Source: an uncultured Bacteroidales bacterium
Lineage (GTDB): Bacteria > Bacteroidota > Bacteroidia > Bacteroidales > DTU049
Direction: 5' to 3'
DNA: 64,000 nt
Assembly: GCA_964551645.1 (NCBI GenBank)
Contig: CAZKDV010000001.1
Span: 17,065 to 81,064, forward strand
Part shown: in pieces, positions 8,127 to 59,514 of the stretch
Layout of the letters: every line of letters starts with the position of its first letter
How positions within the stretch are numbered: position 1 is the stretch's first letter
Position numbers and translations under genes: made by a program
Notes under the pieces: generated by a model
Databases searched by the model: none
The model's input: the letters and a program-made list of their open reading frames with translations, nothing else
Told to the model about the DNA's origin: nothing

Positions 8127-8141
8127 AACAATCTTTTTTTG

Positions 8142-8232: not shown

Positions 8233-8358
8233 TTACTTTAAATGTCCATAAGACTTATAGGCTGGGCATTTTTTTTGAGATTTGCAAGAAGTAGATCCCA
8301 AAACAACAAATACTAATGCCAGAGTTAAAGTGGACAGTATAAGAAATCTTTTCATCAT
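8233..8358 (-). CDS. 41-aa putative small lipoprotein/lipopeptide
   Basis: MMKRFLILSTLTLALVFVVLGSTSCKSQKKCPAYKSYGHLK has an h-region followed by Cys. A TAATTTTG box lies 9 nt upstream of the ATG at 8358. The 64-aa track ORF is an upstream extension. Short length keeps confidence modest. Confidence 0.45.
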   Translation of the reverse strand: MMKRFLILSTLTLALVFVVLGSTSCKSQKKCPAYKSYGHLK

Positions 8359-8366
8359 TTTTTTTG

Positions 8367-8374
8367 CAAAATTA
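8367..8374 (-). promoter_or_regulatory. -7 promoter box TAATTTTG for the small lipoprotein ORF
   Basis: The plus-strand caaaatta is the reverse complement of TAnnTTTG. It lies directly back-to-back with the ung box. Confidence 0.4.
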
Positions 8375-8375
8375 C

Positions 8376-8383
8376 TACTTTTG
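8376..8383 (+). promoter_or_regulatory. -7 promoter box TACTTTTG for ung
   Basis: Matches TAnnTTTG, 44 nt upstream of the ATG at 8427. Confidence 0.4.
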
Positions 8384-8426
8384 TATAATATAATTGAGAT
8401 TTTTTTTATCTTTACAAAAAACACCA

Positions 8427-13506: not shown

Positions 13507-13518
13507 AAATATAACATT

Positions 13519-34260: not shown

Positions 34261-35265
34261 ATGAAAAAACAAGTATATTTTTCTCTTGTTATAACTATTG
34301 CTCTAATATCGTTGAGTTTACCATCATTTAGTCAACAAGAAGCCCAATTCAGCCACAATATGTTTAACATATTATCATATAATCCCGCATACGCCGGAAG
34401 TAACAACCAAATATGTCTAACAACTCTTGGCAGGCAACAGTGGATGGGTTTATCAGAAACTAATGAACAAGGAAATTCGGTTAATGTTGCTCCACAAACA
34501 TTCTTATTTAGTATTGACGGAAATGTAGATTTTTTAAGAGGCGGACTTGGAGCTGTTGTTTATAAAGACAAATTAGGACACGAAGACAATATAGGCTTAA
34601 AACTTGGCTATTCATACAAACATGCAATCGGACCAGGACACTTGAGCGGTGGCATTATGCTTGGATTTTTAAATAAAGTTATTGATTATTCAGCATTTAA
34701 TGCAATTAATGAAAATGACCCTTTATTAAATGGAGCTAAAGAAAGCGATATGATTTTTGACATGTCTTTTGGAGCATTTTATCGAGTTCCCGGAAGTTTT
34801 TATGCCGGAATTTCATCTTCTCAACTTTTACAATCTGAATCTACTTTCCCTGATAATTTAGGTAGTCCAAAACTAAAAAGACACTACTATATCACAGGAG
34901 GATACAATTATACATTACCGTCAATGCCTGAATTGGAATTACAACCATCAATATTGATAAAATCTGAATTTGTAACTGCTCAATTTGACATAAATTGTTT
35001 ATTATTATGGAATTCGCAAATTTGGGGAGGAGCATCATATCGCTCAACTGATGCTGTAGTGCTATTTTTAGGAGGCAAACCATTTTTAAATTCAACAATA
35101 TCATCAATGGAAGCATTATCTTTTGGTATTGCTTATGATATTACTACTTCAGCCTTGGGCGGAGCAGGAAGAAGTTTTGGTAGTGCAGAAATTATGTTAA
35201 ATTATTGCTTCGAAATTAAAATAGAGAAGCCAATTTCGAGTTATAAGAATGTAAGGTTTTTGTAA
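34261..35265 (+). CDS. porP: PorP/SprF-family type IX secretion system membrane protein
   Basis: A signal peptide is followed by QQEAQFSHNMFNILSYNPAYAGS, the family hallmark. It is beta-rich, about 334 aa, and immediately upstream of gldK as in Porphyromonas porP-porKLMN. Confidence 0.8.
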   Translation: MKKQVYFSLVITIALISLSLPSFSQQEAQFSHNMFNILSYNPAYAGSNNQICLTTLGRQQWMGLSETNEQGNSVNVAPQTFLFSIDGNVDFLRGGLGAVVYKDKLGHEDNIGLKLGYSYKHAIGPGHLSGGIMLGFLNKVIDYSAFNAINENDPLLNGAKESDMIFDMSFGAFYRVPGSFYAGISSSQLLQSESTFPDNLGSPKLKRHYYITGGYNYTLPSMPELELQPSILIKSEFVTAQFDINCLLLWNSQIWGGASYRSTDAVVLFLGGKPFLNSTISSMEALSFGIAYDITTSALGGAGRSFGSAEIMLNYCFEIKIEKPISSYKNVRFL

Positions 35266-35323
35266 AAGCAATGTAACCTTTCAAAAAAAGTGTCGTAAAA
35301 GTTAAATAGTTAAAATTACAACC

Positions 35324-36712: not shown

Positions 36713-36758
36713 AAATTAATAATCTTAACATAATAACTAATTCTTAAAATAATAATTT

Positions 36759-37817: not shown

Positions 37818-37831
37818 AAAGAGAAAACTGT

Positions 37832-39448
37832 ATGGCGTCAAAAAACTGTCCAGAAACCCCCAGACAACGAATGATAGCTATGATGTACCTTGTACTTACG
37901 GCATTATTAGCTCTCAATGTATCAGCTGATGTACTAAACTCTTTTGTTGTTGTAAATGAAGGAATAGTTGCAACAAATCAAATTTTCTCTAAAAAAGTAG
38001 AAGCATCTTATAGTATTTTTGAAGCTGCCATGGCAGAGAATCCTGAGAAAACTAGAACTGCTTACAACAAAGCAATGGAAGTAAAACAAATGTCTATTGA
38101 CATGGTTGATTACATTGAAAACCTAAAAGCAGAACTAATTTCTCTAACTGAAGGAATCTCTATTGAAGAGGCAAAAACAATTAGTGCCTCAAAATTAAGA
38201 AAAAGAGACAACTATGATATTCCAACCACATTCTTAATTGGGCAAGACCAAACGACAGGAAAAGATGGACGAGCAAATATGCTCAAAGAAAAAATAATTG
38301 AATATAAAACATCTATTATAAATGTATTAGATGAAAGTTCTAGAGATAAAGTAAACTTAACATTGAATGTTGATGATATGCCATCATCATTAGATAAAAA
38401 TGTTACAAGAACATGGGAAATTGGTTCTTTTTATAAAATAGTTCAAATAGCATGTGTTGCTATTTTAAATAAATTAGTTTTAGAAGTAAGAAATTCCGAA
38501 GCAGATGTTATTGCACAATTATATGCTGATGTTGATGCTGGAGACTTTAAATTTAACAAAATTTCTGCTAAAGTCGTTCCTAAAAGTAATTTCGTAATTA
38601 CAGGTGGAGAATTTGAAGCTGAAATATTTGTAGCTGCTTACGATACACTTACTTCTCCTGAAGTTATTATTGGTTCTGGGATTGATACAACCGGTGGTGC
38701 AGTTAAAGTTTTAGGCGCTCCAAGAACATTAGAAGGAGAAAATGGCATTGTAAAATATAAAACAATTGCTAGTGGTGTTGGCGTACAAACTTATGGCGGA
38801 GTAATTAATGTACCCCTACCTACTGGAGGAAAAAAATCTTATCCCTTTAAAGGAGAATACGCCGTAGCCGCCCCTACTGCAACAGTTTCTGCCGACAAAA
38901 TGAATGTATTTTATATAGGAGTTGACAATCCTGTTTCTATTTCTGTTCCTGGAATTCCTAATGATAAGGTAAAACCTTCAATAACAAATGGAAGAATGAG
39001 TTCAACGGGAAGCGGTAAATATAATGTTCGTGTTGAAAGTGGAAACGAAGCAACTATTAATGTGTCAGCAGAAATGGATGGACAAGTAAGATCTATGGGT
39101 TCATTTAAATTTAGAATTCGTAGAGTTCCTGATCCAGTTCCATATATCGCAAGTATTAGAGAAGGAAATATCCCTAAAGGAAATCTTATTGCAAGTCCTA
39201 TTATTATTCCAAGAATGGAAAATTTTGAGTTTGACCTTAACTTTACCATCGTTTCATATAGATTTATTATTACACAGCCCGGTGGCGACATTATTGAAAG
39301 AGATGGTTCAGGTGGAAGATTAACACAAGAAATGATTAATTATATTAACAACGCAAGAAGAGGGACAAGATGTTATATAGAAAATATTAGAGCTCAAGGT
39401 CCTGACGGAACACGCGGTGTTGCCCCAATCAGTTTAAGAATTATTTAA
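37832..39448 (+). CDS. gldM: T9SS/gliding protein GldM (PorM)
   Basis: The N-terminus TPRQRMIAMMYLVLTALLALNVS is the GldM signature. It has a single TM and a long periplasmic region of 538 aa. Confidence 0.9.
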   Translation: MASKNCPETPRQRMIAMMYLVLTALLALNVSADVLNSFVVVNEGIVATNQIFSKKVEASYSIFEAAMAENPEKTRTAYNKAMEVKQMSIDMVDYIENLKAELISLTEGISIEEAKTISASKLRKRDNYDIPTTFLIGQDQTTGKDGRANMLKEKIIEYKTSIINVLDESSRDKVNLTLNVDDMPSSLDKNVTRTWEIGSFYKIVQIACVAILNKLVLEVRNSEADVIAQLYADVDAGDFKFNKISAKVVPKSNFVITGGEFEAEIFVAAYDTLTSPEVIIGSGIDTTGGAVKVLGAPRTLEGENGIVKYKTIASGVGVQTYGGVINVPLPTGGKKSYPFKGEYAVAAPTATVSADKMNVFYIGVDNPVSISVPGIPNDKVKPSITNGRMSSTGSGKYNVRVESGNEATINVSAEMDGQVRSMGSFKFRIRRVPDPVPYIASIREGNIPKGNLIASPIIIPRMENFEFDLNFTIVSYRFIITQPGGDIIERDGSGGRLTQEMINYINNARRGTRCYIENIRAQGPDGTRGVAPISLRII

Positions 39449-39466
39449 AAAAAACAGGAGGTTATC

Positions 39467-40300
39467 ATGAAACGCTTCTTTTTGATTTGCATAACATTTT
39501 TCTCTTTCAGTGCATTTGCACAAGTTATAGATGCTCCTCCTATTACAACTGGAGCATGGGAAAAAGAATATGTCGCAAGCAGAAAACCAATTCCTTATTC
39601 GCATTTGCGTGAAGCAGATGTTCTTTGGGGAAAAAGAATTTGGAGAGTGATTGATTTAAGAGAAAAAATGAATCACCCACTATATTATCCAACTCAACCT
39701 ACTGCTGGTCGTGTTAATTTAATGACAGTTATCTTTGACGGACTTAAAGAAGGAGAGATTAAAGCATATTCTGCTGACGATTTTCAATTAGAAATGAGTT
39801 ATAATGAAATCATGAACTCTCTCGAAAGACGAGATTCAATAGTTGCATACCGAGAAGAACCTCCTCACGATCAATATGATACTGTTATTGTACAACCATT
39901 TGATCCGGGTTCAGTTATGATGTTTAGAGTTCAAGAAGATTGGTTTATTGATAAACAACGCTCCGTGATGGATGTTAGGATTCGTGGACTTTGCCCACTT
40001 AGAGCAAGTTATGATGCTGACGGAAATGTTAGAGGTTATAGTCAATTATTCTGGATTTATTTTCCATACGCAAGAGAACTTTTTGCTAAAAATGAAATTT
40101 ACAATAGACATAACGATGCTGCACGAATGAGTTTTGATGACTTATTCTTTAAAAGAATGTTTTCAAGTTATATTATTAAAGAAACTAATGTTTACGATAG
40201 ATCTATTGCGGAATATGCCCTCGGACTTGATGGCTTGCTTGAAGCTGAACGAATCAAAGAAGAGTTATTTATTATGGAACACGATTTGTGGGAATACTAA
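39467..40300 (+). CDS. gldN: T9SS/gliding periplasmic protein GldN (PorN)
   Basis: Signal peptide plus LREADVLWGKRIWRVIDLREKMNHPLYYP, a conserved GldN block. It occupies the last position in the gldKLMN order. Confidence 0.85.
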   Translation: MKRFFLICITFFSFSAFAQVIDAPPITTGAWEKEYVASRKPIPYSHLREADVLWGKRIWRVIDLREKMNHPLYYPTQPTAGRVNLMTVIFDGLKEGEIKAYSADDFQLEMSYNEIMNSLERRDSIVAYREEPPHDQYDTVIVQPFDPGSVMMFRVQEDWFIDKQRSVMDVRIRGLCPLRASYDADGNVRGYSQLFWIYFPYARELFAKNEIYNRHNDAARMSFDDLFFKRMFSSYIIKETNVYDRSIAEYALGLDGLLEAERIKEELFIMEHDLWEY

Positions 40301-46697: not shown

Positions 46698-48275
46698 ATG
46701 CTTAAATTATCTATTGACTGGTTAAAATTATCCCTAAACAGATACTTGTTTTTGATATTTGCTTTTTTAATAGGATTACTATTTTCAAAGTTTTTATTAA
46801 GCGTTACATTATTTTTTCTTGTCGGTAATTGGATATTTGAAGGTGAGCTAAAAAAGAAAATATTAGTTTTATTTCGCAATAAAGCTGCAATATTTTTTTT
46901 GCTAATATTTGCTTTACATATTGTTGGATTAATTTATACTTCAGATTTTAATTATGCTCTAAAAGATCTTAGAGTTAAACTCCCTTTACTTGTACTTCCT
47001 ATAGTTTTTGGAAGTATTGAACCTTTTCCTCAAAAATATATCAAACAAATTATTCGTTTTTTCGTACTTTTAGTACTTGTATCTTCCATTTTTTCAATTG
47101 TTACATATTACCAAGCTCCTCATCTTGCTCACAGAAACACATCTCCTTTTATTCATCACATTAGGTTTAGCTTACTTGTAACAATAGCTTTCTTTTTTGT
47201 TATTTATGAAGCATTATGCAAAAAAAGCAAATCCTTTTCAATTCAACTTTTGTATTGGCTAATAGCTTCGTATCTTTTTTTGTTTATATTGCTATTCCTT
47301 GGTTCTATCAATGGAATAGTGATTTTTGCTTTCACTTTATTTTGGTGGATAGGATATTTTATATTTAAAAACAAGTCAATAACATTCAAAATTATATCCG
47401 TAATTGGTATTTTGAGTATTAGCTACCTACTCATCATTTGGCTATTCCAATTTAAAAACAACTATTTTCCTCCCCAAAAATCATTATCTTTCCCTCTTGA
47501 AGAATATACAGCACAAGGCACACCGTACTTTCATGGACTTGAAGCAAATGTTTATGAAAATGGCAATCCAATCCATATTTATGTTTGTGAAGAAGAATTA
47601 GAAAAAGAATGGAGCAAAAGAGATAATAACATTAGTTTTAATGAATTATTTAATGAAAAACATCAAATTAAAGATGTGCTAATAAGGTATATGACTTCCA
47701 AAGGGCTAAAAAAAGACTCTGTTGGATTTAGCCAACTCAACGAAAAAGACATACATTACATTATCAACGGAGTAACACATTACAAACTTGCAGGAAAAAA
47801 ACCAATTATCAGCCGATTATATGAATTATATTGGGGATATTACAATAAAAACAGCAAAGGCTTGGCTAATGATAATTCTTTATTGCTTCGACTACAATAT
47901 TGGAAAGTCTCTGTAATGATTATTCAACAATATCCCATATTTGGAGTAGGAACTGGAGATATTAAACATGCGTTTAAAGAGCAATACGATAAAATTAATA
48001 CTACACTTGAACCCAATAAGCAAAGGCGTTCGCACAATCAATATTTGTCTATATCTGTTACTTTTGGACTGTTTGGGCTATTTGTATTTATATTTGCGCT
48101 CACTTATCCTGCAATTATTAACAAGAGGTTTAATTCTTTCCACTTCACTACCGTTTTTATAATACTTTTACTATCAATGATTACAGAAGATACTATTGAA
48201 ACACAAGTTGGAGTTAGTATTTTTAGTTTTTTCTATTGTTTCTTTCTCGAAAACAATCCATCTATTGAAAACTAA
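46698..48275 (+). CDS. O-antigen ligase-like polytopic membrane protein with large soluble insert
   Basis: Many TM segments and a late GVGTGD ... RRSHNQYL motif typical of the O-antigen ligase domain. A soluble insert of about 150 aa lies between TM blocks. Confidence 0.6.
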   Translation: MLKLSIDWLKLSLNRYLFLIFAFLIGLLFSKFLLSVTLFFLVGNWIFEGELKKKILVLFRNKAAIFFLLIFALHIVGLIYTSDFNYALKDLRVKLPLLVLPIVFGSIEPFPQKYIKQIIRFFVLLVLVSSIFSIVTYYQAPHLAHRNTSPFIHHIRFSLLVTIAFFFVIYEALCKKSKSFSIQLLYWLIASYLFLFILLFLGSINGIVIFAFTLFWWIGYFIFKNKSITFKIISVIGILSISYLLIIWLFQFKNNYFPPQKSLSFPLEEYTAQGTPYFHGLEANVYENGNPIHIYVCEEELEKEWSKRDNNISFNELFNEKHQIKDVLIRYMTSKGLKKDSVGFSQLNEKDIHYIINGVTHYKLAGKKPIISRLYELYWGYYNKNSKGLANDNSLLLRLQYWKVSVMIIQQYPIFGVGTGDIKHAFKEQYDKINTTLEPNKQRRSHNQYLSISVTFGLFGLFVFIFALTYPAIINKRFNSFHFTTVFIILLLSMITEDTIETQVGVSIFSFFYCFFLENNPSIEN

Positions 48276-48652: not shown

Positions 48653-49858
48653 TTATTTTTCTTTTACAAAATCAGCATAATATGTATCTATGATACGCCT
48701 AAGCATTGGACGATAGTAATTCCAAAAGAAACTATCTCTTTCAACAGTATTTTTCAAATAGAAAAAACTGCTTACCCATTGCACTCCTCTAAATTTTGAA
48801 GTATTCATAGTTACTGGATTGTCGCAGAAATCGCCGGCAAAGTAATAAAAAAGATAATCATTTGGTTTATCATATTCTAAAACAGCAGGAAACTTAGTTG
48901 GGATTCCCCAAGTTCTCATGAGTTTTACTCCTTCTGAATTGCAATCAATAATATACTCAGAAGTAACTTGATTTTTTCCGTGATAATCAATGATATCAAA
49001 CCAAAATGGATATTTCATTGTTGCAGGAATATTATATTTATTCATATATGCGACATGAGTATGTATAATTGGAACATCTATATTTAAATGAGTATTATTT
49101 TCAAGAATTTCAACTTTATCGTCCCATCTAACAAATGCAATTCCCGATTTTGTAAAAGGCCAAATACTATCATGCTGTTCAAGATAATTTCTTTTTAGCC
49201 ATTGAGGTATTTCTTTATTTTTATTTGTATCTAATGTTTCAAAATATCTTCCTATCCATCCCGACCACCTCATGTCGAATTCGTCTTCAAATCCTTTTCG
49301 AATATTTCTCGGCGTCGGCGAACCAATGATATTAAATTCTGTAAGTATCAACTTCTTGCGCTCTTTCATCTTTTTAAGAAGTTCCAACTCAACCCATGTC
49401 AAACCTCCATATATTTTTCTTGAACGCTCAAGAGCACTTATTTTTTCTTTATCTTCCAACAAACTCGGGTTAGCAGATTTATTTTCTTCGAGCCATTCAA
49501 TAGTATAAATACCATACAAGTCTGTATAATATAACATATCATTAGCATCAGCTAATGAATCTAATTGATAGTCTTGAAAACCATTAAAATCATGTATATC
49601 ATAATCAAATTTTTCTTTTGGAAAAAATCCGTAATAATCTTCATGACGATTGTAAAAAGTGCGATCTTTTTTTACATATTTTCTATTAGTCAACAACCAA
49701 TTTAATGAAATATGTTCTTGTGTTTTGCTATTTAATACTGTCTTGTCTAAAATTAAAACATTCATTTCTTTTTTAGGTGTAACAAACCAAGCAATAAACA
49801 ACCATAATGGAAGCAAAAACAATAGTGCGAGAACAATTAATAAAATATATCTTCTCAT
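48653..49858 (-). CDS. Hypothetical N-terminally anchored membrane protein (401 aa), unknown family
   Basis: A long ORF in an AT-rich genome with an ATG start. The MRR + TM anchor (ILLIVLALLFLLPLWLFIAWFV) precedes a Trp/Tyr-rich ~370-aa domain. It has its own -7 box and ends 15 nt before the REC gene. No motif recognised. Confidence 0.6.
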   Translation of the reverse strand: MRRYILLIVLALLFLLPLWLFIAWFVTPKKEMNVLILDKTVLNSKTQEHISLNWLLTNRKYVKKDRTFYNRHEDYYGFFPKEKFDYDIHDFNGFQDYQLDSLADANDMLYYTDLYGIYTIEWLEENKSANPSLLEDKEKISALERSRKIYGGLTWVELELLKKMKERKKLILTEFNIIGSPTPRNIRKGFEDEFDMRWSGWIGRYFETLDTNKNKEIPQWLKRNYLEQHDSIWPFTKSGIAFVRWDDKVEILENNTHLNIDVPIIHTHVAYMNKYNIPATMKYPFWFDIIDYHGKNQVTSEYIIDCNSEGVKLMRTWGIPTKFPAVLEYDKPNDYLFYYFAGDFCDNPVTMNTSKFRGVQWVSSFFYLKNTVERDSFFWNYYRPMLRRIIDTYYADFVKEK

Positions 49859-49877: not shown

Positions 49878-49885
49878 CAAAGTTA
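49878..49885 (-). promoter_or_regulatory. -7 promoter box TAACTTTG for the 401-aa/REC pair
   Basis: The plus-strand caaagtta is the reverse complement of TAnnTTTG, 20 nt upstream of the ATG at 49858. Confidence 0.4.
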
Positions 49886-49933: not shown

Positions 49934-52465
49934 TTAATAAATTATTGAAATTGTGCCCCTATACTTTTTAGCATGCGAACCAAAGTTAGCCTTAATAAAA
50001 TAAACATAAACTCCTTGTGGAACTTTTTGATTTATGTTATCCCCATATTGATATGTGCCGTCCCATTTTGCATTATTGATATTTTCTGCAAAAAACACAA
50101 TATTTCCCCACTTATCGTAAACATACATTTCAAAATCATCAGCTTGTATATTTGTTGCTAAAGGCATAAAATAGTCATTAATGCCGTCTCCATCAGGAGT
50201 AAAAGCATTTGGGATATACAAAGCAACTAATGGTTTGATTTGTATTGTTTTACATATAGTATCTAAACATCCCCACTGATTGCTAACTATTTGACAAACT
50301 GAAAACTCACCAGGTGATGTAAATGCATGGCTAGGGTTTTGCTCTATTGAGTGATTATCCTTAATATCATTAAAATCCCAATTCCATGAAACTGCTCCTA
50401 ATGATTGGTCAGAGAACAAAATTGTGGACTCTTCTTCGCTTGCAATACTAGACGATGGCTTAAAATTAGCTTTAGGTTTTGGAAAAACTGTTATATAATC
50501 AGTTAAAACAAGTATATTATCACAGCCTAAACTAGTAACAGTTAGAGATACTGGGTAAGAACCTGAATTTACATAAGTGTATGTGGGAGTTGTAGCACTT
50601 GAAGTAGCTCCATCTCCAAAATCCCATTTATATGAACCAGAATCACTTTGGTTAGAAAAAGTAATCTGTAATGGCATACACCCCGTTGTTGATTCTGTAA
50701 AAAAACTAACATTAGGAATTGGAACAATATCAACTTCAAAAGTATCAATAGCAAAACAAGCATTTGCATCTATAACTTGGATAGTTTGTACTCCTCCACT
50801 TAAGTTAGATGCTGTTTCTGTTTTTTCTCCACTTTCCCACGAGTAAGAATAGCTGGCTGTGCCACCTGTAACAATAGCCATAGCACTTCCATCTGATTTT
50901 CCTTCACAAACAGATGTTATATTACTTGCAACAACATTTAACACATCAGGTTCAACTAGTACACCCGTAAGAACTTGTTGGCACATATCTGCAGAAGTAA
51001 CCGTAACGGTATATGCTCCATCAGCCAAATTATCAAGACTTGAGTCGGTAGAATTATCAAACCATACATATTGAAAAGGAGCTTCGCCTTCCTTAATATT
51101 TACACTTATACTTCCATTGCTATCTCCATTACAGAGTGGATGTTTAATGCTTAACTCAGCTGACAGCACTCCAAAGTTTGGCACATTTATAGACTGCTTT
51201 AATGGACATTCGCCATTCGGACCAGTTACTGTTACATTATAAGTACCTTCTTTTAAATTGTAAGCATTGGGAGTATTGTCAGTAGTATGTTCCCAAGTAT
51301 AAACATGGGGCTGAACTCCACCTGTGGTTTGAAGTTCGATAGAACCTATTCCTTGTTGGCATGTATCACTCTTAACGGTGTAAACAATATCTATATCGCT
51401 CACATCGTCTATAGTAGCACTTCCAGCTGTAGAGGCAGGTGGACTTTGGCTATCTGTGATAGTTACAGAATATATTCCGGCAAATAAGCCTGTTACTATA
51501 TGCGGATTATCAGATGTTGTAAAACTGTTGAAATATCCACTACTTCCAGTAATTTCATAATGGTACGGAGAAGGTGAAGATATTGCAATAGGAACTTCTA
51601 ACGATAATTTACCTTTTCCTACAGAGCATGTGTCTTGAAATGGAGTTACAACAAGATTCGCACACGAAATACAATTCCCATCATTACATCTGTCCACTCT
51701 GTTAGGTCCAATACTTGGAGCTACATTTGGCTGAAAATCTCCCCCATCGGGAATGCGGCTAAATGTTTTTCCCATTTCAATGCTATTCCCTTGTCCTAAA
51801 TAAATTATCGGATCTTTATCATAATACATTCCTGTAGCCGATTTTAAGTTAGTACCCAAATATGCAATAGGAATACATGGGCTTAAACCAAAGTCATTAC
51901 CTACAGAAGAAACATTATCTTCATAATTTGACCAATAAACAGCAGCATGCGTTGAACCATCCGGATTGTATATAGCAATCCAACCTTGTCCATTTGGCAA
52001 AAACCAAGTTTCTGAATAATTTTGACCATCTTCACAAATACACAAGTAGTCCGAAGGTAGATAATCCCTTAACTTAATATCAATTGAATTACTCAAATAT
52101 GCGTCAGCACAAGCATTGCAAGTTTCATCTGCACCACCGATTGTCAAAAAACCTCCTGCCGGAACAACTGTTCCCGGAGGAAAACAAAAAGAACCACCAA
52201 CACAATCACTCCCTCCGTCAATATCTCCGGTTTTACTAGCTATTAGCCAGCCACTTATGTCAATATCTTTAGTACAATCAGGATTATACAACTCAATATA
52301 TTCTCTGCCCAAATTAGGATTATCAATATCAAGCATACTTTGACACGGATCTTGCGTAGATGATGGTCCTGGGTTGAACATCACCTCATTTATAATTATT
52401 TGTTGAGCAGAAATACTGCTTACTAAAAGAAAAGTAAAAATAAATAAAAAATAATTATATTTCAT
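49934..52465 (-). CDS. Lamin-tail-domain / SprB-repeat / PKD surface protein, T9SS cargo with type B CTD
   Basis: Signal peptide MKYNYFLFIFTFLLVSSISAQ from the ATG at 52465. LTD (IIINEVMFNP...EYIELYNP...GWLI), about four SprB-type repeats (C.G..(D/N)GSI...Y.Y.W...G.Y.VTV.D...C) and two PKD domains (WDFGDG, WNWDF). The C-terminus is IPNAFTPDGDGINDYF...DKWGNIVF...WDG....GVYVYF. Confidence 0.85.
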   Translation of the reverse strand: MKYNYFLFIFTFLLVSSISAQQIIINEVMFNPGPSSTQDPCQSMLDIDNPNLGREYIELYNPDCTKDIDISGWLIASKTGDIDGGSDCVGGSFCFPPGTVVPAGGFLTIGGADETCNACADAYLSNSIDIKLRDYLPSDYLCICEDGQNYSETWFLPNGQGWIAIYNPDGSTHAAVYWSNYEDNVSSVGNDFGLSPCIPIAYLGTNLKSATGMYYDKDPIIYLGQGNSIEMGKTFSRIPDGGDFQPNVAPSIGPNRVDRCNDGNCISCANLVVTPFQDTCSVGKGKLSLEVPIAISSPSPYHYEITGSSGYFNSFTTSDNPHIVTGLFAGIYSVTITDSQSPPASTAGSATIDDVSDIDIVYTVKSDTCQQGIGSIELQTTGGVQPHVYTWEHTTDNTPNAYNLKEGTYNVTVTGPNGECPLKQSINVPNFGVLSAELSIKHPLCNGDSNGSISVNIKEGEAPFQYVWFDNSTDSSLDNLADGAYTVTVTSADMCQQVLTGVLVEPDVLNVVASNITSVCEGKSDGSAMAIVTGGTASYSYSWESGEKTETASNLSGGVQTIQVIDANACFAIDTFEVDIVPIPNVSFFTESTTGCMPLQITFSNQSDSGSYKWDFGDGATSSATTPTYTYVNSGSYPVSLTVTSLGCDNILVLTDYITVFPKPKANFKPSSSIASEEESTILFSDQSLGAVSWNWDFNDIKDNHSIEQNPSHAFTSPGEFSVCQIVSNQWGCLDTICKTIQIKPLVALYIPNAFTPDGDGINDYFMPLATNIQADDFEMYVYDKWGNIVFFAENINNAKWDGTYQYGDNINQKVPQGVYVYFIKANFGSHAKKYRGTISIIY
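49937..50221 (-). other. Type B T9SS C-terminal domain (gliding-motility-associated CTD, about 95 aa)
   Basis: LYIPNAFTPDGDGINDYFMP...YVYDKWGNIVF...KWDGTY...VPQGVYVYFIKA... Confidence 0.8.
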
Positions 52466-52513
52466 TCGATTGATATTAAAAAACAACCTTTATATTAACT
52501 AAATTATTTGATG

Positions 52514-52521
52514 CAAAATTA
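52514..52521 (-). promoter_or_regulatory. -7 promoter box TAATTTTG for the 850-aa cargo gene
   Basis: The plus-strand caaaatta is the reverse complement of TAnnTTTG, 49 nt upstream of the ATG at 52465. Confidence 0.4.
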
Positions 52522-52583
52522 ACATATTAGTTTAAGAAGAATAAAGTTTTTTGATATATAAATCATACTCATAAATTATACTG

Positions 52584-55500
52584 TTATCTTATTATTGTCA
52601 GAGACGACTTATGCTCCTTGTCATAATAGTAAAACACATAGTAATAAGTTCCATCTGGCAAGTTGCCGCCATCCCAATCATTCTGATAATTGGTTTGTTC
52701 AAAAACTTTATTTCCCCAACGATTAAAGACAACTAATTTAGTGTTTGGAATTTTTTCGGCATTTGTTATTTCAAGTTTATCATTTATACCATCTCCATTC
52801 GGAGTTATTACATTGGGAAATTTATTATCAATAATTTTAATTTCTTTAATAATTGTATCTGCACAACCATAATTGTTTGACAATATCAGAGTTACAGTAT
52901 ATGATGCATCATCGCTTGGATATTTATGAATTGTTGAATTTGGTTCATTGTTATTTTCGCCGTCTCCAAAATCCCAATTCCAATATTGTGCATCAGAAGT
53001 AGATGTAAATGTTATTTCTGGATTATCGGCTGTGCCATAATCAGGAGAAAAAGTAAAATCTGCTATTGGTTGCGGATATGCTTCAATATAATTTGTTATT
53101 TTAAGAGTATCCTTACAACCATAAGTATTTGTAACTAATAGCGTTACTGTATATTTACCTTCAGGATATGTATTTGAAGGATTTTGTTGTGTTGATGTGC
53201 TAGCGTCTCCAAAATCCCAATTCCATTCAATTATTGAATTGTCTTGTGAAACATCTACAAACTCAACATAAAGAGGTTCGCAGCCATTTGTAACATTTGA
53301 CGAAAAATCAACTTCCGGTTTAGGATTTACAACAACATATACAGAATCAATACCTTTGCAATTTGATTTATCTGTTACAGTAACTATATATGAAGTTGAT
53401 GATGATGGAGAAACACTTATTTGTTCTGTTTGCTGATTAGAGTTCCACATAAAATTTGGATTTTCTGCTGTTGTGGATACGCTAAGCAAAATTGATTCTC
53501 CCATACACAATTCTGGATTTTTGGGTTGAACTTGAACTGTAAATGCTTCATGCACAACAATTTCAATATTAGCTGTTGAACTACAAAAATTTTCGTCGGT
53601 TCCTGTTACGCTATATATTGTTGTTTCGGAAGGACTTATATTATGAGAATCTCCTGCCCCTAAATTATTATCCCAAACATAAACAGTGCCACCAGATGCT
53701 ACTATTGTTGTTTGCTCTCCTACACAAATTGAATTTGGGTCTGCACTTGCCACAATTTCAGGTAGTGGTGCTACTGTTATCGTAATTGAAGCTGTATTTT
53801 GACAATCATTGCTTGCTGTTGCTGTTACATTGTAAGTAGTTGTTGTTGTCGGGGATATAATATGAGTAGCACTTGCCGGCAAGTCATTATCCCATGCATA
53901 ATTTACGCCACCTTGTGCGGTGATAGTTGTTGACTCTCCCATGCAAATTATATTTTTTTCTGCCGAAATAACAATATCGGGAGCCGGATAAACAGTAAGT
54001 TCTGTAGATGAAGTAGCAATACAACCACCTTCATCTGTAACTGTAACTGTATATGTACCAGACATTGCTGTTGTAACATTGCTTATAGTATTATTAGAAG
54101 AAGTACTTGAAAAGTTATTTGGACCATTCCATTTATATTTATGGTTTTCCAGATTAGTTGCTTCAAATGTAAATGTTTCACCTTGACACATAGCAGCATC
54201 AGCAGAAGTAGAAATGTCAAAAGTTACATTTTTCACTTCAACACATGCAGTAAGTGTATTGTTTTCTGTATCAGTAACGGTAACACAATAAGTACCTTCG
54301 CACAAACCAACAGCCGTTTGTGTAGTTTGAGCCATTCCATCATTCCATTTATATGTATAGGGAGCTTCACCACCTGAAACAATTGCAGATGCAGTACCCG
54401 TACAAGTAATTTCTGGTTCGGGGTCGCAAACAGAATTGCAAAAACCGATTGTTTGGTTTTCTCCATAAGAAGACCAAGCTCCACCATCAGGAATTCTCAT
54501 ATAACTCAATCCTGTTGCCGGAGTGCTATAAGTAATAATTGTTTTTCTTTCTGAGGGAATATTATCATAAGGCAACAAGCTTCCGGCATAGCCACAAGAG
54601 CCTATAGCACCCGGATTACACGGATAACATGACATACATGAATTTGATTGACTTCCCCATGAAATAGCGTCTTGAGGCACTCCATTTCTATCATAAAAAG
54701 CAAACCAACCACCTGCATTTGGAAACCACAATCTTGAACCACCACCTAAACATACTCTAGACGGATCATCTACAACAATCTCAACAGTTTTTCCTCCATT
54801 TTGCACCAAATATTGGGAATTAACGGCAGGTGCATTAACTCCTCTTATCACACAAAAACCTTGAGGAGGAATAATAGTGCCTTCTGGAATTACATATCCT
54901 CCGGGAAAATCTTTTTGCGAAAAAATTCCATCTTGATCTTTCGCATTATTTCCAAGAAAATAACATGAAATATCAATTGATTGACATCTGTCCGGGTTAT
55001 ACAATTCTATCCACTCCCCGCCACGACTATCCGGACTTTTACTATAAATAGAACCATCACCCGTATTGGGTGATAGCATAACTTCATTAATCAAAATTGA
55101 AGGTCCATCATAATTGCAACCAAAACCATCACATTTTGTATTTTCGGTAGAACTCATTGATAATGAAAAATTTGATGTAGGTGTATAAAACATTCGCACT
55201 TCATCAACAGAAAAAGCAGGATCGTCTCCACCACTCACATTATTGTCAAACATGAAAGCAAATCGTAAATCTGCTTGATTATCAAATTCTGGATTAACGA
55301 ATGTTGCAAAAGTCCAATTTGATACATTTGTATAATTTGCACCCAAATCTTTCCACGAAGTTCCGCCATCTATGCTATACCAAACTGAGCCTTTTGCTCC
55401 ATTACAAAGCCACCAAAAAGAAAGTGTTACATCGCTAATGCCAGAAGTATTTATCCCTGCATTCATTTTGGTAAAATTTGCACCTGCTTCACCACCAACA

Positions 55501-55862
55501 ATAGATGAAGAAAACCCATCAACAAAATTTGCATTACCAACTCCATCTGCCAAAGCAGCACCGCAAACAATGTGTAAATATTGACTCTGAGGGCTATTTG
55601 TTATCTGTGCAGGCTGATTGGGGGTACTGGGAATTGTTACGGGGAAAAAAACGCCTAAGTTATATGTGCCACCAGCATAGGTATTGTTAATTATCCATTG
55701 ATTTGCACCATTACTGCCAACACTACCCATGTCAGAAGTATTTAACGACCAATTTGCACTCCCGCTTTCAAAATTATCATAAAACAATTCAACCTCCGGA
55801 AGTTGAGAAAAAACAAACTGACCTGCCAAAATTAAAATAAATAAAAGATAAAGTTTTTTCAT
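52584..55862 (-). CDS. Lamin-tail-domain / Ig-like-repeat / PKD surface protein, T9SS cargo with type B CTD
   Basis: Signal peptide MKKLYLLFILILAGQFVFSQ from the ATG at 55862; the ATG at 55886 sits only 3 nt from the -7 box. It has an N-terminal lectin/MAM-like region and an LTD (ILINEVMLSP...EWIELYNPD). These are followed by one SprB-type repeat and four Ig-like repeats (C.GE...I.A.GG..Y.W...). It ends with two PKD domains (WNWDFGD) and the C-terminus FPNVITPNGDGINDKL...FNRWGNKVF...WDG...DGTYYYV. Confidence 0.85.
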   Translation of the reverse strand: MKKLYLLFILILAGQFVFSQLPEVELFYDNFESGSANWSLNTSDMGSVGSNGANQWIINNTYAGGTYNLGVFFPVTIPSTPNQPAQITNSPQSQYLHIVCGAALADGVGNANFVDGFSSSIVGGEAGANFTKMNAGINTSGISDVTLSFWWLCNGAKGSVWYSIDGGTSWKDLGANYTNVSNWTFATFVNPEFDNQADLRFAFMFDNNVSGGDDPAFSVDEVRMFYTPTSNFSLSMSSTENTKCDGFGCNYDGPSILINEVMLSPNTGDGSIYSKSPDSRGGEWIELYNPDRCQSIDISCYFLGNNAKDQDGIFSQKDFPGGYVIPEGTIIPPQGFCVIRGVNAPAVNSQYLVQNGGKTVEIVVDDPSRVCLGGGSRLWFPNAGGWFAFYDRNGVPQDAISWGSQSNSCMSCYPCNPGAIGSCGYAGSLLPYDNIPSERKTIITYSTPATGLSYMRIPDGGAWSSYGENQTIGFCNSVCDPEPEITCTGTASAIVSGGEAPYTYKWNDGMAQTTQTAVGLCEGTYCVTVTDTENNTLTACVEVKNVTFDISTSADAAMCQGETFTFEATNLENHKYKWNGPNNFSSTSSNNTISNVTTAMSGTYTVTVTDEGGCIATSSTELTVYPAPDIVISAEKNIICMGESTTITAQGGVNYAWDNDLPASATHIISPTTTTTYNVTATASNDCQNTASITITVAPLPEIVASADPNSICVGEQTTIVASGGTVYVWDNNLGAGDSHNISPSETTIYSVTGTDENFCSSTANIEIVVHEAFTVQVQPKNPELCMGESILLSVSTTAENPNFMWNSNQQTEQISVSPSSSTSYIVTVTDKSNCKGIDSVYVVVNPKPEVDFSSNVTNGCEPLYVEFVDVSQDNSIIEWNWDFGDASTSTQQNPSNTYPEGKYTVTLLVTNTYGCKDTLKITNYIEAYPQPIADFTFSPDYGTADNPEITFTSTSDAQYWNWDFGDGENNNEPNSTIHKYPSDDASYTVTLILSNNYGCADTIIKEIKIIDNKFPNVITPNGDGINDKLEITNAEKIPNTKLVVFNRWGNKVFEQTNYQNDWDGGNLPDGTYYYVFYYYDKEHKSSLTIIR
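52587..52823 (-). other. Type B T9SS C-terminal domain (about 79 aa)
   Basis: KFPNVITPNGDGINDKLEI...VVFNRWGNKVFE...DWDGGNLPDGTYYYVFYY... Confidence 0.8.
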
Positions 55863-55888: not shown

Positions 55889-55896
55889 CAAAGATA
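55889..55896 (-). promoter_or_regulatory. -7 promoter box TATCTTTG for the 1100-aa cargo gene
   Basis: The plus-strand caaagata is the reverse complement of TAnnTTTG. It lies 27 nt upstream of the ATG at 55862 and only 3 nt from the ATG at 55886. Confidence 0.4.
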
Positions 55897-55931: not shown

Positions 55932-56477
55932 TTATGTATTTTTAAGCCTATCAAAAAATATACTTTTTGACGATACGCTCAAAGGAATTCCAAATGCAAT
56001 TTTAACTTCTTTGGGAATAAATCTACCTTTTATTGCTGCATATCCAGCTGAAAAAAATACTCTGTTATCAACATTATTTTGGCTGGCAATGCTTACAGCT
56101 GAACCAATAGCAATCCCCAAATCAACATTGTTAAAAGTGCATGGAATGTCGGGATTTTCTAATTTTTCATCACAATTATTAAAACCGCAATAACTGCATG
56201 CTTTCAGTCCTAAGGGAGATATTTTTGTTCCTATCAAAACTAAGGCTTGGGCGTTTTCAAGATTCACTGCATCTCTCGCAAAAAAACTCACTTGTTTTTC
56301 TTCAGCAATTTTTTTCATTAAATCTGCAATTTTTTGTTTTTCTTCTTGTGTAATAATTGCCATGTATAAACTGTCTAAACCTCTTGCTTTTGGAGCTGTT
56401 CGAGCAGATGTCAACATTTGTTCAGCTACTCTTAAAACTACTTTTTCTCTGATTGATTCTTCTGTTATTATTGCCAT
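55932..56477 (-). CDS. DUF2148-like ferredoxin-domain protein
   Basis: The N-terminus ...VAEQMLTSARTAPKARGLD and the Cys cluster CSYCGFNNC...C resemble the DUF2148 family. It starts 11 nt after the MORN gene. Confidence 0.55.
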   Translation of the reverse strand: MAIITEESIREKVVLRVAEQMLTSARTAPKARGLDSLYMAIITQEEKQKIADLMKKIAEEKQVSFFARDAVNLENAQALVLIGTKISPLGLKACSYCGFNNCDEKLENPDIPCTFNNVDLGIAIGSAVSIASQNNVDNRVFFSAGYAAIKGRFIPKEVKIAFGIPLSVSSKSIFFDRLKNT

Positions 56478-56488
56478 ATTAAATATTT

Positions 56489-57139
56489 TTAATTATATTC
56501 CTCAATACATTGAATTTCGTTGCCGTATTCATAACACTTTACTTCCTTAATATTGGAGTTTTTTTCAAACCATATTTCTTTTCCATGCTTTTGATTGTCA
56601 ACAAAATATGTTTTCACTAAAGTATCTCGCGTATTATAGTAAAAAGATATATGTTGACCTGTACCATTTGTATATTCGCCAAAACCTGAAAAAATTCCAT
56701 TAAAATCATAATATTTCCACTCTCCGTCAAACATATCCTTAACAAAGCCACCTTCAATCTTCAATTGTCCATTTTCGTGTAGTTCTTTGTATTTTCCGTT
56801 TTTCAGACCTTTTTCATAACTCATTGAAATTTTTAAATTTCCATTTTCGTAGTAAGACAAAAACTCACCATTCAGAGTATCCATAATATAATGCTCCATT
56901 CCTTCAATATGACCATCATAATACCATCGCTTCATTTCTCCGTTTAATTTCCCATAGTAATATGTTGTTTCAAGTTGTTTATTCCCATTTGCGTGATAAT
57001 ATACTGCTTTTCCGTGCATAAGATTGTTCTTAAATTCAACTTCTGACCTCACATTGCCATTTGGATAATATTGGGTAACTTGCTTTTTACAAGAAAAGCT
57101 CAAACACGCAAAAACACAAATAATTAGAACTCTATACAT
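56489..57139 (-). CDS. MORN-repeat-variant (YwqK-like) lipoprotein
   Basis: Lipoprotein-type signal VFACLSFSCKK. It carries repeated YYxNGxxxxExxYxxGxxxGxxxxWYxxG units (for example YYPNGNVRSEVEFKNNLMHGKAVYYHANGN). Confidence 0.75.
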   Translation of the reverse strand: MYRVLIICVFACLSFSCKKQVTQYYPNGNVRSEVEFKNNLMHGKAVYYHANGNKQLETTYYYGKLNGEMKRWYYDGHIEGMEHYIMDTLNGEFLSYYENGNLKISMSYEKGLKNGKYKELHENGQLKIEGGFVKDMFDGEWKYYDFNGIFSGFGEYTNGTGQHISFYYNTRDTLVKTYFVDNQKHGKEIWFEKNSNIKEVKCYEYGNEIQCIEEYN

Positions 57140-57145
57140 TGTTAT

Positions 57146-59485
57146 TTATTCAGCTAATTGTAGAAAAAACGAAAATGTTGAACCTTGATTCGGAATACTT
57201 TTTACTTTTATTTTTGTATTATGCTTCAACAAAAATTCTTTACAAATCAACAAACCTAATCCACTACCTTTTTCTGAAGCAGTTCCGCGAGTTGATTTAC
57301 TTTTGTTGACATTAAAAAGATTTTGAACCTGCTCTTGACTCATTCCAACACCATTATCAATTATTGCAATTTGAATTCTTTTTTGCACTTTTTCAGCTTT
57401 GATTATTATTTTTTCTTTTGGGGGTGAAAACTTCAAAGCATTGGATATCAAATTCCTAAAAACTGTTGAAATCATGGACTTATCAGCTAATATCTGAATT
57501 GTTGAGTCAAAAACCTTAAGAATTTCCACTTGTTTAGAAGCTGCATGACTTGCAAATAAACTAATTGCATCATCAACTAGTTCGGACAAGTAAATTGGTT
57601 CTGGATTGTACCTAATTTTTCCTGTTTGAGACATTGACCACTGCAAAAGATTTTCTAACAAATAATATATTTGGTCGGTAGTTTTCTCTAAATCTTCTGT
57701 AAGTTCTTGAATCTCAGTTTTTTTCAACTTATTTATATCTCTTTTAATAAGTCGGGTAAAACTAACAACCGAAGCAAATGGACTTCTAAGATCATGAGCT
57801 ATGATAGAAAATAATTTGTCTTTAGTTGAATTAAGAGACATTAGTTCTTCTTCTGACTTTTTAAGTTTCTCATTTGCAGATACAAGCGAATTATTTAGTT
57901 TGTTTAGTTCTTGTTTCTGTTCTTCAAGACTTAAGTTCATGCTGACAAGCAGTTTGTTTGCAGAAGATATTTCATTTTTTTGCTCAATAAGTAATCTATT
58001 TTTCTTTCTGATGAAAAATATCAAATAAACTGCAAACACCAATAAGCAAAGCAAAACAACAGCTCCGATAGTTATATTTCGTTTCACGGCAATAGCTTGC
58101 TCTTTTAAGACTTGTTCTAACTTATGAGACTTTTTGAGAATTTCTAAATCGTTTTGTTGTTTTGATAGTTCAAAAATTAAATCTATAGTTTGAAAAGTAC
58201 TTGCCTCTTTAAGTTCAAAAAATCTTATTGCATGAGTCTTGCTTTTAAGCATGTACTCATAAGCAGCTTTATAATTATTTAGATTGAATTCAACTTTTGC
58301 TAAATGCGTATATATCTCGCTAATCAGGTCGTCTCTATTTGTGTAAATACCAATGCTAATGCTTTTTAGAAGGGTTTCTTTTGATTTAAAATTTCTTCCT
58401 TGTAACAAAAGATAGTGTCCAATTCTCATCAAAGTTTGAGCTTCATTCTCAAGATCATTTATATTGCGTGCAATAACAAGATTCCTGTCAAGATACAATA
58501 ATGCTTTATTAATACTATTTTTACTTGCGTATGCTGATGCAATTTCATAATTCAAATTTAAAATTTGTAAAAAGTTGTTTTCTTGCTCTGCCAACAATTT
58601 CCCTCGCATAAAATAATTCAATGCTTTATCAATATTGTTTTGAATCAGATTAGTTTTTCCAAGTTCTATTAAAGAAGATATTTCGCCTGTTAAATTATTA
58701 TTTTGTTTATAAAATTTATTTGCTAACAAATAATTTGTTATTGCTTCATCATACTGTTGATTTTCTCGCAATAAAGTTCCTAAATTGATATATAAAATAG
58801 GCAAATAGGTAATTTCTTTTATGTTTCCTGCAATTTCAATGGCAGTATTATATTTTTCTATTGCTTTGGATTTTTGATCGAGTAAAGCATAAATCTGCCC
58901 AAGATTTATCAAAGACATTACTATTTGTTGCTCGTCTGAAATAGTTTTACTTATATCAAAAGCTTTTAGTCCATATTGCAATGCTTGATAATAATTATTG
59001 TTTGCCAAATATAGTGTGCTATATGCTTGATAAGTGTCGTATAAGCCTTTATTATTAGCATTTTTGGAGAATATTGACTCAGCTTGAGAAAAATGAAAAA
59101 CTGCATTTTGAATATCTCCTAACAAATTAAAAGTTTTTCCTATATCTATAGAAATTCTTGCAACTTCATTGTGTTTGTTCGCTTTTTTTGCAACCGACAT
59201 TGCTCTATTATAATAATCAAGTGCATTGCGATAATGTCCATAGCGGATTTCAATTAACCCAAGATTAGCTAAAGAAGTAATTACACCATTAGTGTATGAT
59301 TTTTTGTTCGAAATCTGAAGTGCTTCTAATAAATTAGATATTGCTTGGTTTGAATCGGTAACAGATAATTCAAGTGCCTTTGCATTCATTTGAATTATTT
59401 TGTTTGTATCAATTGCAAAAATTTGAGCTTTTAATACAAAAACAATAATAAAACATACAAATATACGAACTTGAGTGTATTTCAC
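57146..59485 (-). CDS. TPR-repeat sensor histidine kinase
   Basis: N-terminal signal/TM, about 10 TPR-like repeats, a TM (ITIGAVVLLCLLVFAVYLIFFI) and a coiled coil. H-box FSIIAHDLRSP and HATPase motifs DNGVGM and GSGLGL follow. The start is set to the GTG at 59485 because the TTG at 59509 lies inside the -7 box; start confidence is moderate. Confidence 0.85.
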   Translation of the reverse strand: MKYTQVRIFVCFIIVFVLKAQIFAIDTNKIIQMNAKALELSVTDSNQAISNLLEALQISNKKSYTNGVITSLANLGLIEIRYGHYRNALDYYNRAMSVAKKANKHNEVARISIDIGKTFNLLGDIQNAVFHFSQAESIFSKNANNKGLYDTYQAYSTLYLANNNYYQALQYGLKAFDISKTISDEQQIVMSLINLGQIYALLDQKSKAIEKYNTAIEIAGNIKEITYLPILYINLGTLLRENQQYDEAITNYLLANKFYKQNNNLTGEISSLIELGKTNLIQNNIDKALNYFMRGKLLAEQENNFLQILNLNYEIASAYASKNSINKALLYLDRNLVIARNINDLENEAQTLMRIGHYLLLQGRNFKSKETLLKSISIGIYTNRDDLISEIYTHLAKVEFNLNNYKAAYEYMLKSKTHAIRFFELKEASTFQTIDLIFELSKQQNDLEILKKSHKLEQVLKEQAIAVKRNITIGAVVLLCLLVFAVYLIFFIRKKNRLLIEQKNEISSANKLLVSMNLSLEEQKQELNKLNNSLVSANEKLKKSEEELMSLNSTKDKLFSIIAHDLRSPFASVVSFTRLIKRDINKLKKTEIQELTEDLEKTTDQIYYLLENLLQWSMSQTGKIRYNPEPIYLSELVDDAISLFASHAASKQVEILKVFDSTIQILADKSMISTVFRNLISNALKFSPPKEKIIIKAEKVQKRIQIAIIDNGVGMSQEQVQNLFNVNKSKSTRGTASEKGSGLGLLICKEFLLKHNTKIKVKSIPNQGSTFSFFLQLAE

Positions 59486-59506
59486 TTTTTTTAAGAATAT
59501 AAAAAG

Positions 59507-59514
59507 CAAAAATA
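59507..59514 (-). promoter_or_regulatory. -7 promoter box TATTTTTG for the sensor kinase operon
   Basis: The plus-strand caaaaata is the reverse complement of TAnnTTTG, 22 nt upstream of the GTG at 59485. Confidence 0.4.

Follow-up and report, generated by a model that had tools for sequence, protein, structure and literature searches.

Two neighbouring genes, designated here cargo 1 and cargo 2, of an uncultured Bacteroidota bacterium with a low GC content (about 30%) very likely encode surface adhesins that are collected by an unlinked PorP/SprF-family shuttle, which would be either the PorP encoded in the porP-gldKLMN operon or a paralogue encoded elsewhere in the genome. To judge from their sequences, both proteins are type B CTD cargos of the T9SS, as each presents matches to the CTD models and a putative signal peptide, and the T9SS core is encoded in the same window (i.e., the whole 64-kb stretch of DNA analysed; Table 1). 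Neither gene has an adjacent porP/sprF-like gene, which is the feature that defines the orphan type B substrates described previously (PMC12618676).

Table 1. Coordinates of the features discussed in the text, in window numbering.
Feature	Coordinates	Strand	Evidence and remarks
PorP/SprF-family gene	34261..35265	+	PF11751 189 bits, TIGR03519 200 bits; candidate shuttle/anchor
Stand-alone receiver domain protein, 121 aa	48272..48637	-	PF00072 43 bits
401-aa conserved protein	48653..49858	-	No described family; predicted N-terminal membrane helix and alpha/beta domain
-7-like box TAACTTTG	49878..49885	-	Upstream of the 401-aa gene; consensus match only
Cargo 2	49934..52465 (843 aa) or to 52486 (850 aa)	-	ORF; Pfam and NCBIfam
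Cargo 2 type B CTD	49946..50215	-	Residues 758-847 (850-aa numbering); TIGR04131 36.0 bits, PF13585 58.6 bits
Cargo 2 lamin-tail domain	51932..52411	-	Residues 26-185 (850-aa numbering); PF00932 50.9 bits (cut-off 34.3)
-7-like box TAATTTTG	52514..52521	-	Upstream of cargo 2; consensus match only
Cargo 1	52584..55862	-	1092-aa ORF; Pfam and NCBIfam domain calls
Cargo 1 type B CTD	52590..52823	-	Residues 1014-1091; TIGR04131 50.6 bits, PF13585 83.7 bits
Cargo 1 lamin-tail domain	54777..55106	-	Residues 253-362; PF00932 35.1 bits, barely over the cut-off of 34.3
-7-like box TATCTTTG	55889..55896	-	27 nt 5′ of the start codon (ATG) of cargo 1; consensus match only

The domain architecture proposed in the initial annotation (a lamin-tail domain [LTD], SprB or Ig-like repeats, two PKD domains, and a type B CTD) was recovered by the Pfam and NCBIfam scans, the LTD of cargo 1 being a marginal match. 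Cargo 1 presents, in this order, a signal peptide, approximately 230 aa without a family match, the LTD, SprB/Ig_7/PKD-like repeats, two PKD domains, and the CTD; its Pfam scores were 33.3 bits for Ig_7, 83.6 bits in two stretches for PKD_4, and 83.7 bits for CHU_C, while SprB, with 27.7 bits, fell slightly below its cut-off of 28. In cargo 2, the signal peptide is followed directly by the LTD, and then by SprB repeats, two PKD domains, and the CTD, and the 850-aa version of this protein scored 62.6 bits for SprB, 87.6 bits in two stretches for PKD_4, and 58.6 bits for CHU_C. The LTDs of the two proteins align with each other; of the LTD motif that had been proposed, [EW]IELYNP, the core IELYNP stands, but cargo 2 reads EYIELYNP, so that the residue preceding the core is Y and not E or W. 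The putative signal peptides were read from the translations by eye as MKKLYLLFILILAGQFVFSQ/LPE and MKYNYFLFIFTFLLVSSISAQ/QII. No PDB relative was found for the first 231 aa of cargo 1, and Rfam and tandem-repeat scans found nothing. For cargo 2, the ATG at 52465 is the most likely start codon, rather than the TTG at 52486, as suggested by the gene callers (843 aa) and by an 845-aa congener, which is 66% identical to cargo 2. Predicted masses of the two cargos are about 90 and 120 kDa. The two proteins are collinear, old paralogues that are 28% identical across ~890 aa; their architecture is common, with LTD and CHU_C found together in 15 of the best 120 homologues.

Assignment of both C-terminal domains to type B, as initially annotated, was upheld by the HMMs. 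Both CTDs exceeded the cut-offs of the type B models TIGR04131 (35 bits) and PF13585 (27 bits), with near full-length matches at the extreme C-terminus (positions 2–84 of the 85 positions of the TIGR04131 profile in cargo 1). By contrast, the type A model TIGR04183 gave 16.7 bits for cargo 1 and 18.0 bits for cargo 2, below its cut-off of 23 bits, and the type A family PF18962 had no match in either cargo in the Pfam scan; a type A classification was thus ruled out. Stretches conserved in the family (PN.FTP.GDGIND, (N/D)(R/K)WGN.VF, and WDG) are present in both CTDs. Cargo 2 lies only 1 bit over the TIGR04131 cut-off, and its CHU_C score is comfortable. Identity between the CTDs is only 34% over their last 100 aa; cargo 1 and cargo 2 may therefore use different shuttles, since the cross-talk shown in F. 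johnsoniae involves closely related CTDs, even though three orphans in that species share a shuttle with non-identical CTDs (PMC12618676).

A scan of all 46 ORFs of at least 110 aa in the window identified a single PorP/SprF-family gene, which is the first gene of porP-gldK-gldL-gldM-gldN (34261-40300); the PorP family models and the GldK, GldL, GldM, and GldN equivalog models were all passed. The end of porP is separated from the cargo genes by 14.7 kb, so that two statements of the initial annotation, that no porP/sprF-like gene adjoins the cargo genes and that the only PorP of the window heads the gldK operon about 15 kb away, are both borne out. The usual site of sprF-like genes is immediately downstream of the cargo gene, and no such gene is present directly 3′ of the cargo genes here, where cargo 2 and then the genes for the 401-aa protein and the receiver are found. 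A hidden PorP elsewhere in the window could also be ruled out, as its five unannotated ORFs (253, 312, 401, 415, and 428 aa) had no match to PorP even at E ≤ 1. No PorE-like gene was found in the window, and no relative of the PorP encoded there was found in the PDB.

Among relatives of the cargo proteins (i.e., the SprB/PKD/LTD subfamily), the orphan arrangement is the rule. Only one of nine informative loci carrying such relatives had a porP/sprF gene in its flanks. This locus, L012, has one PorP_SprF gene within 8 kb, and it is the only one among the relatives with a cognate sprF-like gene beside the cargo gene; no PorP_SprF was found within 8 kb in L009, L010, and L011, and in L013, which has two type B genes, 16 kb contained no PorP. 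When 56 ORFs flanking the cargo relatives at 12 loci were scanned with Pfam, PF11751 was found only in the L012 control; single-sequence phmmer searches with the window PorP were too insensitive and missed even the L012 PorP. Two kinds of genes that accompany the relatives, small secreted proteins preceding the type B genes of L013–L015 and a helical protein of 455 aa encoded 3′ of the cargo genes in L010 and L011, have no homologue in the window.

In P. gingivalis, porP presumably heads the porKLMN genes and lies far from PG1035. PG1035, a type B protein, is bound and anchored by the single PorP of that species (PMC9143113), and the arrangement described here resembles this system in that only one PorP was seen in the 64-kb window, encoded directly upstream of gldK. 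The two systems differ in that PG1035 is a protein of ~50 kDa and the sole type B protein of P. gingivalis, whereas the window encodes two much larger multidomain cargos, and in that the P. gingivalis complex includes PorE. Another parallel is provided by F. johnsoniae, where three of the 12 type B genes have no adjacent sprF-like gene, their products share the unlinked shuttle Fjoh_1677, and secretion of reporters carrying the CTDs of these orphans needs a co-expressed PorP/SprF paralogue (PMC12618676). Cargo 1 and cargo 2 share with these orphans the type B CTD (TIGR04131), the lack of a neighbouring sprF-like gene, and a putative adhesin role; the passengers here, which consist of LTD, SprB/Ig repeats, and PKD domains, and the host, an uncultured low-GC bacterium that probably belongs to the Bacteroidales in view of its nearest relatives, distinguish them. 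With SprB-SprF and Fjoh_3952-Fjoh_3951-Fjoh_3950 of F. johnsoniae, they have in common SprB-type repeats, the type B CTD, and a putative role as surface adhesins; however, SprB (~669 kDa) is far larger, and both SprB and Fjoh_3952 are followed directly by a cognate sprF-like gene, with a PorE-like gene in addition for Fjoh_3952, an arrangement absent from the window.

Taken together with these systems, secretion of the two cargos through an unlinked shuttle would proceed as follows. Each cargo would be exported over the inner membrane by Sec via the N-terminal signal peptide read from its sequence, and the type B CTD of ~85 aa would target it to the T9SS translocon, whose putative GldK/L/M/N core, recognized by HMM matches, is encoded 10–15 kb away. 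A non-adjacent outer-membrane barrel of the PorP/SprF family would then collect the cargo and hold it on the surface, by analogy with F. johnsoniae and P. gingivalis. This shuttle could be the PorP encoded at 34261-35265, as in the PorP-PG1035 model, or an unlinked paralogue encoded elsewhere in the genome, as in the Fjoh_1677 model, and we consider these two options about equally likely. The LTD, SprB/Ig-like, and PKD modules would make up the exposed stalk together with the binding region.

The cargo genes belong to a group of seven genes (59509 to 48272) that are located on the same strand with short gaps between them. No terminator-like site was found from cargo 1 to the receiver gene; the one site found lies right where the receiver gene ends. 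As the initial annotation had noted, -7-like boxes with the consensus TAnnTTTG are present on the coding strand 5′ of each cargo gene; a single box is weak evidence, because TAnnTTTG occurs often in a window as AT-rich as this one (145 matches vs. 122 expected). On the basis of these consensus matches, cargo 1 and cargo 2 probably each have their own promoter.

The 401-aa protein, encoded immediately 3′ of cargo 2 and in the same orientation, matched nothing in Pfam at E ≤ 1 or in NCBIfam at E ≤ 0.01. In its AlphaFold model (pLDDT 90.7, pTM 0.90), a mixed alpha/beta domain is flanked by an N-terminal helix of 25 residues and by a C-terminal helix, and the best Foldseek matches of this model were ThuA-like and class I glutamine-amidotransferase-like folds. 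Homologues are widespread (622 clusters, 45–60% identity) across Bacteroidota and were also found in one Ignavibacteriaceae MAG. Outside this lineage, none of five genomic contexts of the family placed it beside a type B cargo or LTD gene, while three of the five included a GT2 synthase, a TPR/YaiO protein, and a receiver, and the other two were without any polysaccharide genes. The order of cargo 2, the 401-aa gene, and the receiver gene is kept in a congener, the 401-aa protein of which is 81% identical. The 401-aa protein and the receiver are a module separate from the secretion pair.

This neighbourhood raises the alternative that the two cargos, the 401-aa protein, the receiver, and an upstream TPR histidine kinase constitute one co-regulated surface-matrix unit, in which adhesin display is coupled to exopolysaccharide production via two-component proteins. 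The seven closely spaced genes, the lack of an internal terminator-like site between cargo 1 and the receiver, and the occurrence of 401-aa homologues in GT2, TPR/YaiO, and receiver clusters of three other lineages are consistent with such a unit. We nevertheless consider it unlikely, as cargo 1, cargo 2, and the 401-aa gene each have a promoter-like box of their own, no GT2 synthase or YaiO gene is found near this cluster in the window, and the overlap with the GT2 clusters is limited to the 401-aa gene and, weakly, the receiver; in addition, two contexts of the 401-aa family contain no polysaccharide genes, and the kinase resembles the kinases of the other loci in its catalytic core only. 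A combined reading, improbable in our judgement, would make the PorP of the porP-gldKLMN operon a general shuttle or anchor for several large LTD adhesins and would also have the adhesin genes placed beside a pair, the 401-aa protein and the receiver, that elsewhere travels with synthase-type exopolysaccharide genes; if this were true, adhesin display and matrix production would be controlled together.

It appears very unlikely that the cargos cross the outer membrane via the T9SS without any PorP/SprF shuttle, for example by being released to the medium or handled by PorV. The lack of a shuttle gene adjacent to the cargos and the weak sub-threshold type A matches of both CTDs would fit such a route, but the type A scores remained under the cut-off while the type B models were passed, and every type B CTD tested to date needs a PorP/SprF-family protein and not PorV (PMC12618676; PMC10202324). 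That the 401-aa protein is a new non-PorP accessory replacing the SprF-like partner for both cargos, a substitution suggested by its place in the usual sprF-like position, by the gene order kept in the congener, and by its standing in no described family, can hardly be maintained, since its sequence (neither PorP_SprF nor TIGR03519 matched, even at E ≤ 1), its predicted fold (a membrane helix and a ThuA-like/amidotransferase-like alpha/beta domain, not an outer-membrane beta-barrel), the wide distribution of its family in contexts without type B cargo, and the -7-like box of its own gene all speak against a PorP analogue.

Collection by an unlinked PorP/SprF-family shuttle is thus the reading that we favour for both cargos. 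The missing porP/sprF neighbour, which had initially been presented as remarkable, is real but ordinary, because the orphan type B class has already been described (PMC12618676), and the related loci mostly lack this neighbour as well; the two genes extend the list of orphan type B T9SS substrates and have little import beyond annotation. The 401-aa family is the more useful by-product of this analysis: it is well conserved and confidently modelled, has no assigned family, and is often found in putative exopolysaccharide synthase clusters. For the cargos themselves, the shuttle-less neighbourhoods fit the recent observation that several cargos can be handled by a single unlinked PorP/SprF shuttle.

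The proteins encoded by cargo 1 and cargo 2 both combine a lamin-tail domain (LTD) with repeats, PKD domains, and a C-terminal sorting domain (CTD). Cargo 1 begins with a typical signal peptide (MKKLYLLFILILAGQFVFSQ) and contains an LTD (PF00932; 35.1 bits, cut-off 34.3), repeats of the SprB, Ig_7, and PKD-like kinds, a pair of PKD domains, and, at the C-terminus, CHU_C (83.7 bits); neither Pfam nor the PDB gave a match for the approximately 230 residues ahead of the LTD (window 55113–55805, minus strand). In cargo 2, a signal peptide is accompanied by an LTD (50.9 bits), SprB repeats (62.6 bits), a pair of PKD domains, and CHU_C (58.6 bits); these Pfam matches bear out the domain content proposed for both proteins in the initial annotation. 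Counted from a TTG at 52486, cargo 2 would have 850 aa; an ATG at 52465 (843 aa) is the more probable start, to which gene calls in three metagenome assemblies and the 845-aa protein of a congener point. Both proteins passed TIGR04131, the NCBIfam model for type B CTDs (50.6 bits for cargo 1 and 36.0 bits for cargo 2; cut-off 35), and both fell below the cut-off of 23 bits for the type A model (16.7 and 18.0 bits, respectively); the type B assignment thus holds, and the possibility that these CTDs are really of type A came out negative. Both CTDs also carry the family-typical stretches PN.FTP.GDGIND, (N/D)(R/K)WGN.VF, and WDG, and the last 100 residues of the two proteins are 34% identical. 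Overall, cargo 1 and cargo 2 are collinear, with 28% identity across approximately 890 residues, and so are old paralogues rather than products of a recent duplication. The passenger domains (LTD, SprB/Ig, and PKD) suggest a putative adhesin; a single paper naming both lamin tail domains and type IX secretion was found, and it touches on them only in passing. A tandem pair of large cargo genes with type A CTDs (Por_Secre_tail) is also present at 363–4364 and 4431–7289 (both minus strand); the window thus includes four T9SS substrates besides the core operon.

Features of the cargo region, with the PorP/SprF-family gene and homologues of the 401-aa protein
Feature	Contig or locus	Position	Strand	Detail
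Two long ORFs (cargo 1 and cargo 2)	window	55862 to 49934	-	
Cargo 1	window	52584-55862	-	1092 aa
401-aa protein	window	48653-49858	-	no family model
Sole PorP/SprF-family gene of the window	window	34261-35265	+	PF11751 189 bits, TIGR03519 200 bits
TAnnTTTG box upstream of cargo 1	window	55889-55896	coding strand	motif match
TAnnTTTG box upstream of cargo 2	window	52514-52521	coding strand	motif match
TAnnTTTG box upstream of 401-aa gene	window	49878-49885	coding strand	motif match
401-aa protein homologue	L004	5113-6318		
401-aa protein homologue	L006	10001-11182		
401-aa protein homologue	L007	10001-11158		

A scan of all window ORFs of at least 110 aa against Pfam or NCBIfam identified only one PorP/SprF-family gene, which is followed by gldK, gldL, gldM, and gldN, each passing its own equivalog model; none of the five unannotated ORFs matched PorP, even with the threshold relaxed to E ≤ 1. 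Cargo 2 is followed by the gene for the 401-aa protein, which has no family, and by a gene encoding a 121-aa stand-alone receiver; the observation that no porP/sprF-like gene lies beside the cargo genes is therefore correct. Immediately ahead of cargo 1, the same strand (55932–59509, gaps of 6 and 11 nt between the genes) encodes three further proteins: a 787-aa TPR histidine kinase, a MORN-repeat protein of 216 aa, and a 181-aa protein with a DUF2148 ferredoxin domain; the kinase and the receiver therefore bracket both cargo genes. The -7 box assigned to each cargo gene is present, as is one upstream of the 401-aa gene; the motif is frequent in this window of 30% GC (145 matches, 122 expected), and the three boxes are consistent with separate promoters without demonstrating them. 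No terminator-like site was found between the cargo 1, cargo 2, 401-aa, and receiver genes.

The missing neighbour, which had been considered remarkable, is not unusual; published work deals with this very case. In F. johnsoniae, an sprF-like gene adjoins nine of 12 type B genes, and the three orphans (Fjoh_1123, Fjoh_1720, as well as Fjoh_4934) are all collected by the unlinked shuttle Fjoh_1677 (PMC12618676); in P. gingivalis, the lone PorP binds PG1035, which is the sole type B protein, and serves as its surface anchor (PMC9143113). Among the best 120 cargo 2 homologues, 15 have LTD and CHU_C together; the architecture is common. Four of these homologues, each on a long contig, were inspected: L009, L010, and L011 had no PorP_SprF gene within 8 kb, and in L012 one lies close downstream, together with a PorE-like gene. 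In a Bacteroidales MAG locus (L013), a gene with a type A CTD lies beside two of type B, with no PorP across 16 kb. When the 56 complete flanking ORFs of 220–480 aa at 12 related loci were all scanned against Pfam, PF11751 appeared at the L012 control only. Nine loci combine a true type B CTD with a downstream flank (L009–L013, L015–L017, and L019), and one of them has a porP/sprF gene as a neighbour; orphans are the norm in this cargo subfamily.

Other genes recur beside these relatives. In L010 (11882–13258) and L011 (11177–12538), two unrelated metagenome contigs, the LTD-SprB-CHU_C homologue is directly followed by a gene for a helical protein of approximately 455 aa (41% identity between copies, E = 2e-122), with no signal peptide, no Pfam match, and no counterpart in the window; this protein may serve the cargo subfamily as a conserved partner or regulator. 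In three Bacteroidales MAGs with two type B cargo genes each (L013, L014, and L015), a small secreted protein of approximately 170–180 aa is encoded immediately before each type B gene (in L013, at 311–814 and 7859–8407); the two copies are paralogues (32% identity, E = 4e-32) that lack Pfam matches and have no counterpart in the window. Contig NZ_DAOOUJ010000018.1 (L021), which is assigned to a Methanosarcina MAG and may be archaeal or mis-binned, encodes a PKD-repeat protein related to cargo 2 as well as a homologue of the window DUF2148 protein (E = 8.5e-38).

The 401-aa protein, considered earlier as an alternative partner of the cargos, matched no Pfam or NCBIfam model. Its family is well conserved, with 622 homologous clusters (45–60% identity) across Bacteroidota (Bacteroidales, Sphingobacteriales, Cytophagales, and Chitinophagales) and in an Ignavibacteriaceae MAG. 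The AlphaFold model (32 sequences) is confident (pLDDT 90.7, pTM 0.90) and places a mixed alpha/beta domain between a 25-residue N-terminal helix, read as a membrane helix, and a long helix at the C-terminus. Foldseek returned distant matches only (TM-score 0.45–0.55, normalised on the target); they are folds of the ThuA-like and class I glutamine-amidotransferase-like types and the related domains found in GH42 enzymes, IFT52, and the Wbp1/OST48 oligosaccharyltransferase subunit. The modelled fold is no outer-membrane barrel. None of five contexts outside the lineage of the window had a type B or LTD gene beside the homologue, and the succession of cargo 2, 401-aa gene, and receiver is confined to that lineage (the window, metagenome contigs identical to it, and a congener with an 81% identical 401-aa protein); the 401-aa protein and the receiver therefore represent a separate module, which happens to follow the cargos here. 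In three of the five contexts (a Bacteroidales MAG, Pedobacter aquae, and an Ignavibacteriaceae MAG), the genes beside the homologue encode a TPR/YaiO protein, a receiver, and a glycosyltransferase of the GT2 synthase-like type, suggesting a role of this family in a synthase-type exopolysaccharide system; HEAT-repeat and sulfatase-family proteins are also encoded there in the latter two. In Acetobacteroides and a Cyclobacteriaceae MAG, the homologue is located among unrelated genes. Beyond the 401-aa protein and the receiver, the window has nothing in common with these polysaccharide-type clusters. Two Wzy_C/O-antigen-ligase-like membrane proteins (499 and 525 aa) are encoded within 12490–15919 and at 46698–48275 (both plus strand); the first is preceded by a pair of Wzz-like chain-length-determinant proteins, and the gene for the second is convergent with the receiver gene, with a 4-nt overlap.

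The observation behind the initial annotation was confirmed, and its interpretation found partial support: cargo 1 and cargo 2 are orphan type B T9SS substrates, an already known class. Three points are established: which type of sorting domain the proteins carry, that the T9SS core is present along with one PorP, and that no shuttle gene adjoins the cargo genes. By analogy with F. johnsoniae and P. gingivalis, both proteins would be exported by Sec and then translocated through the T9SS, and an unlinked PorP/SprF-family barrel would collect them and anchor them on the surface; this barrel may be the operon PorP or, about equally likely, a paralogue elsewhere in the genome.
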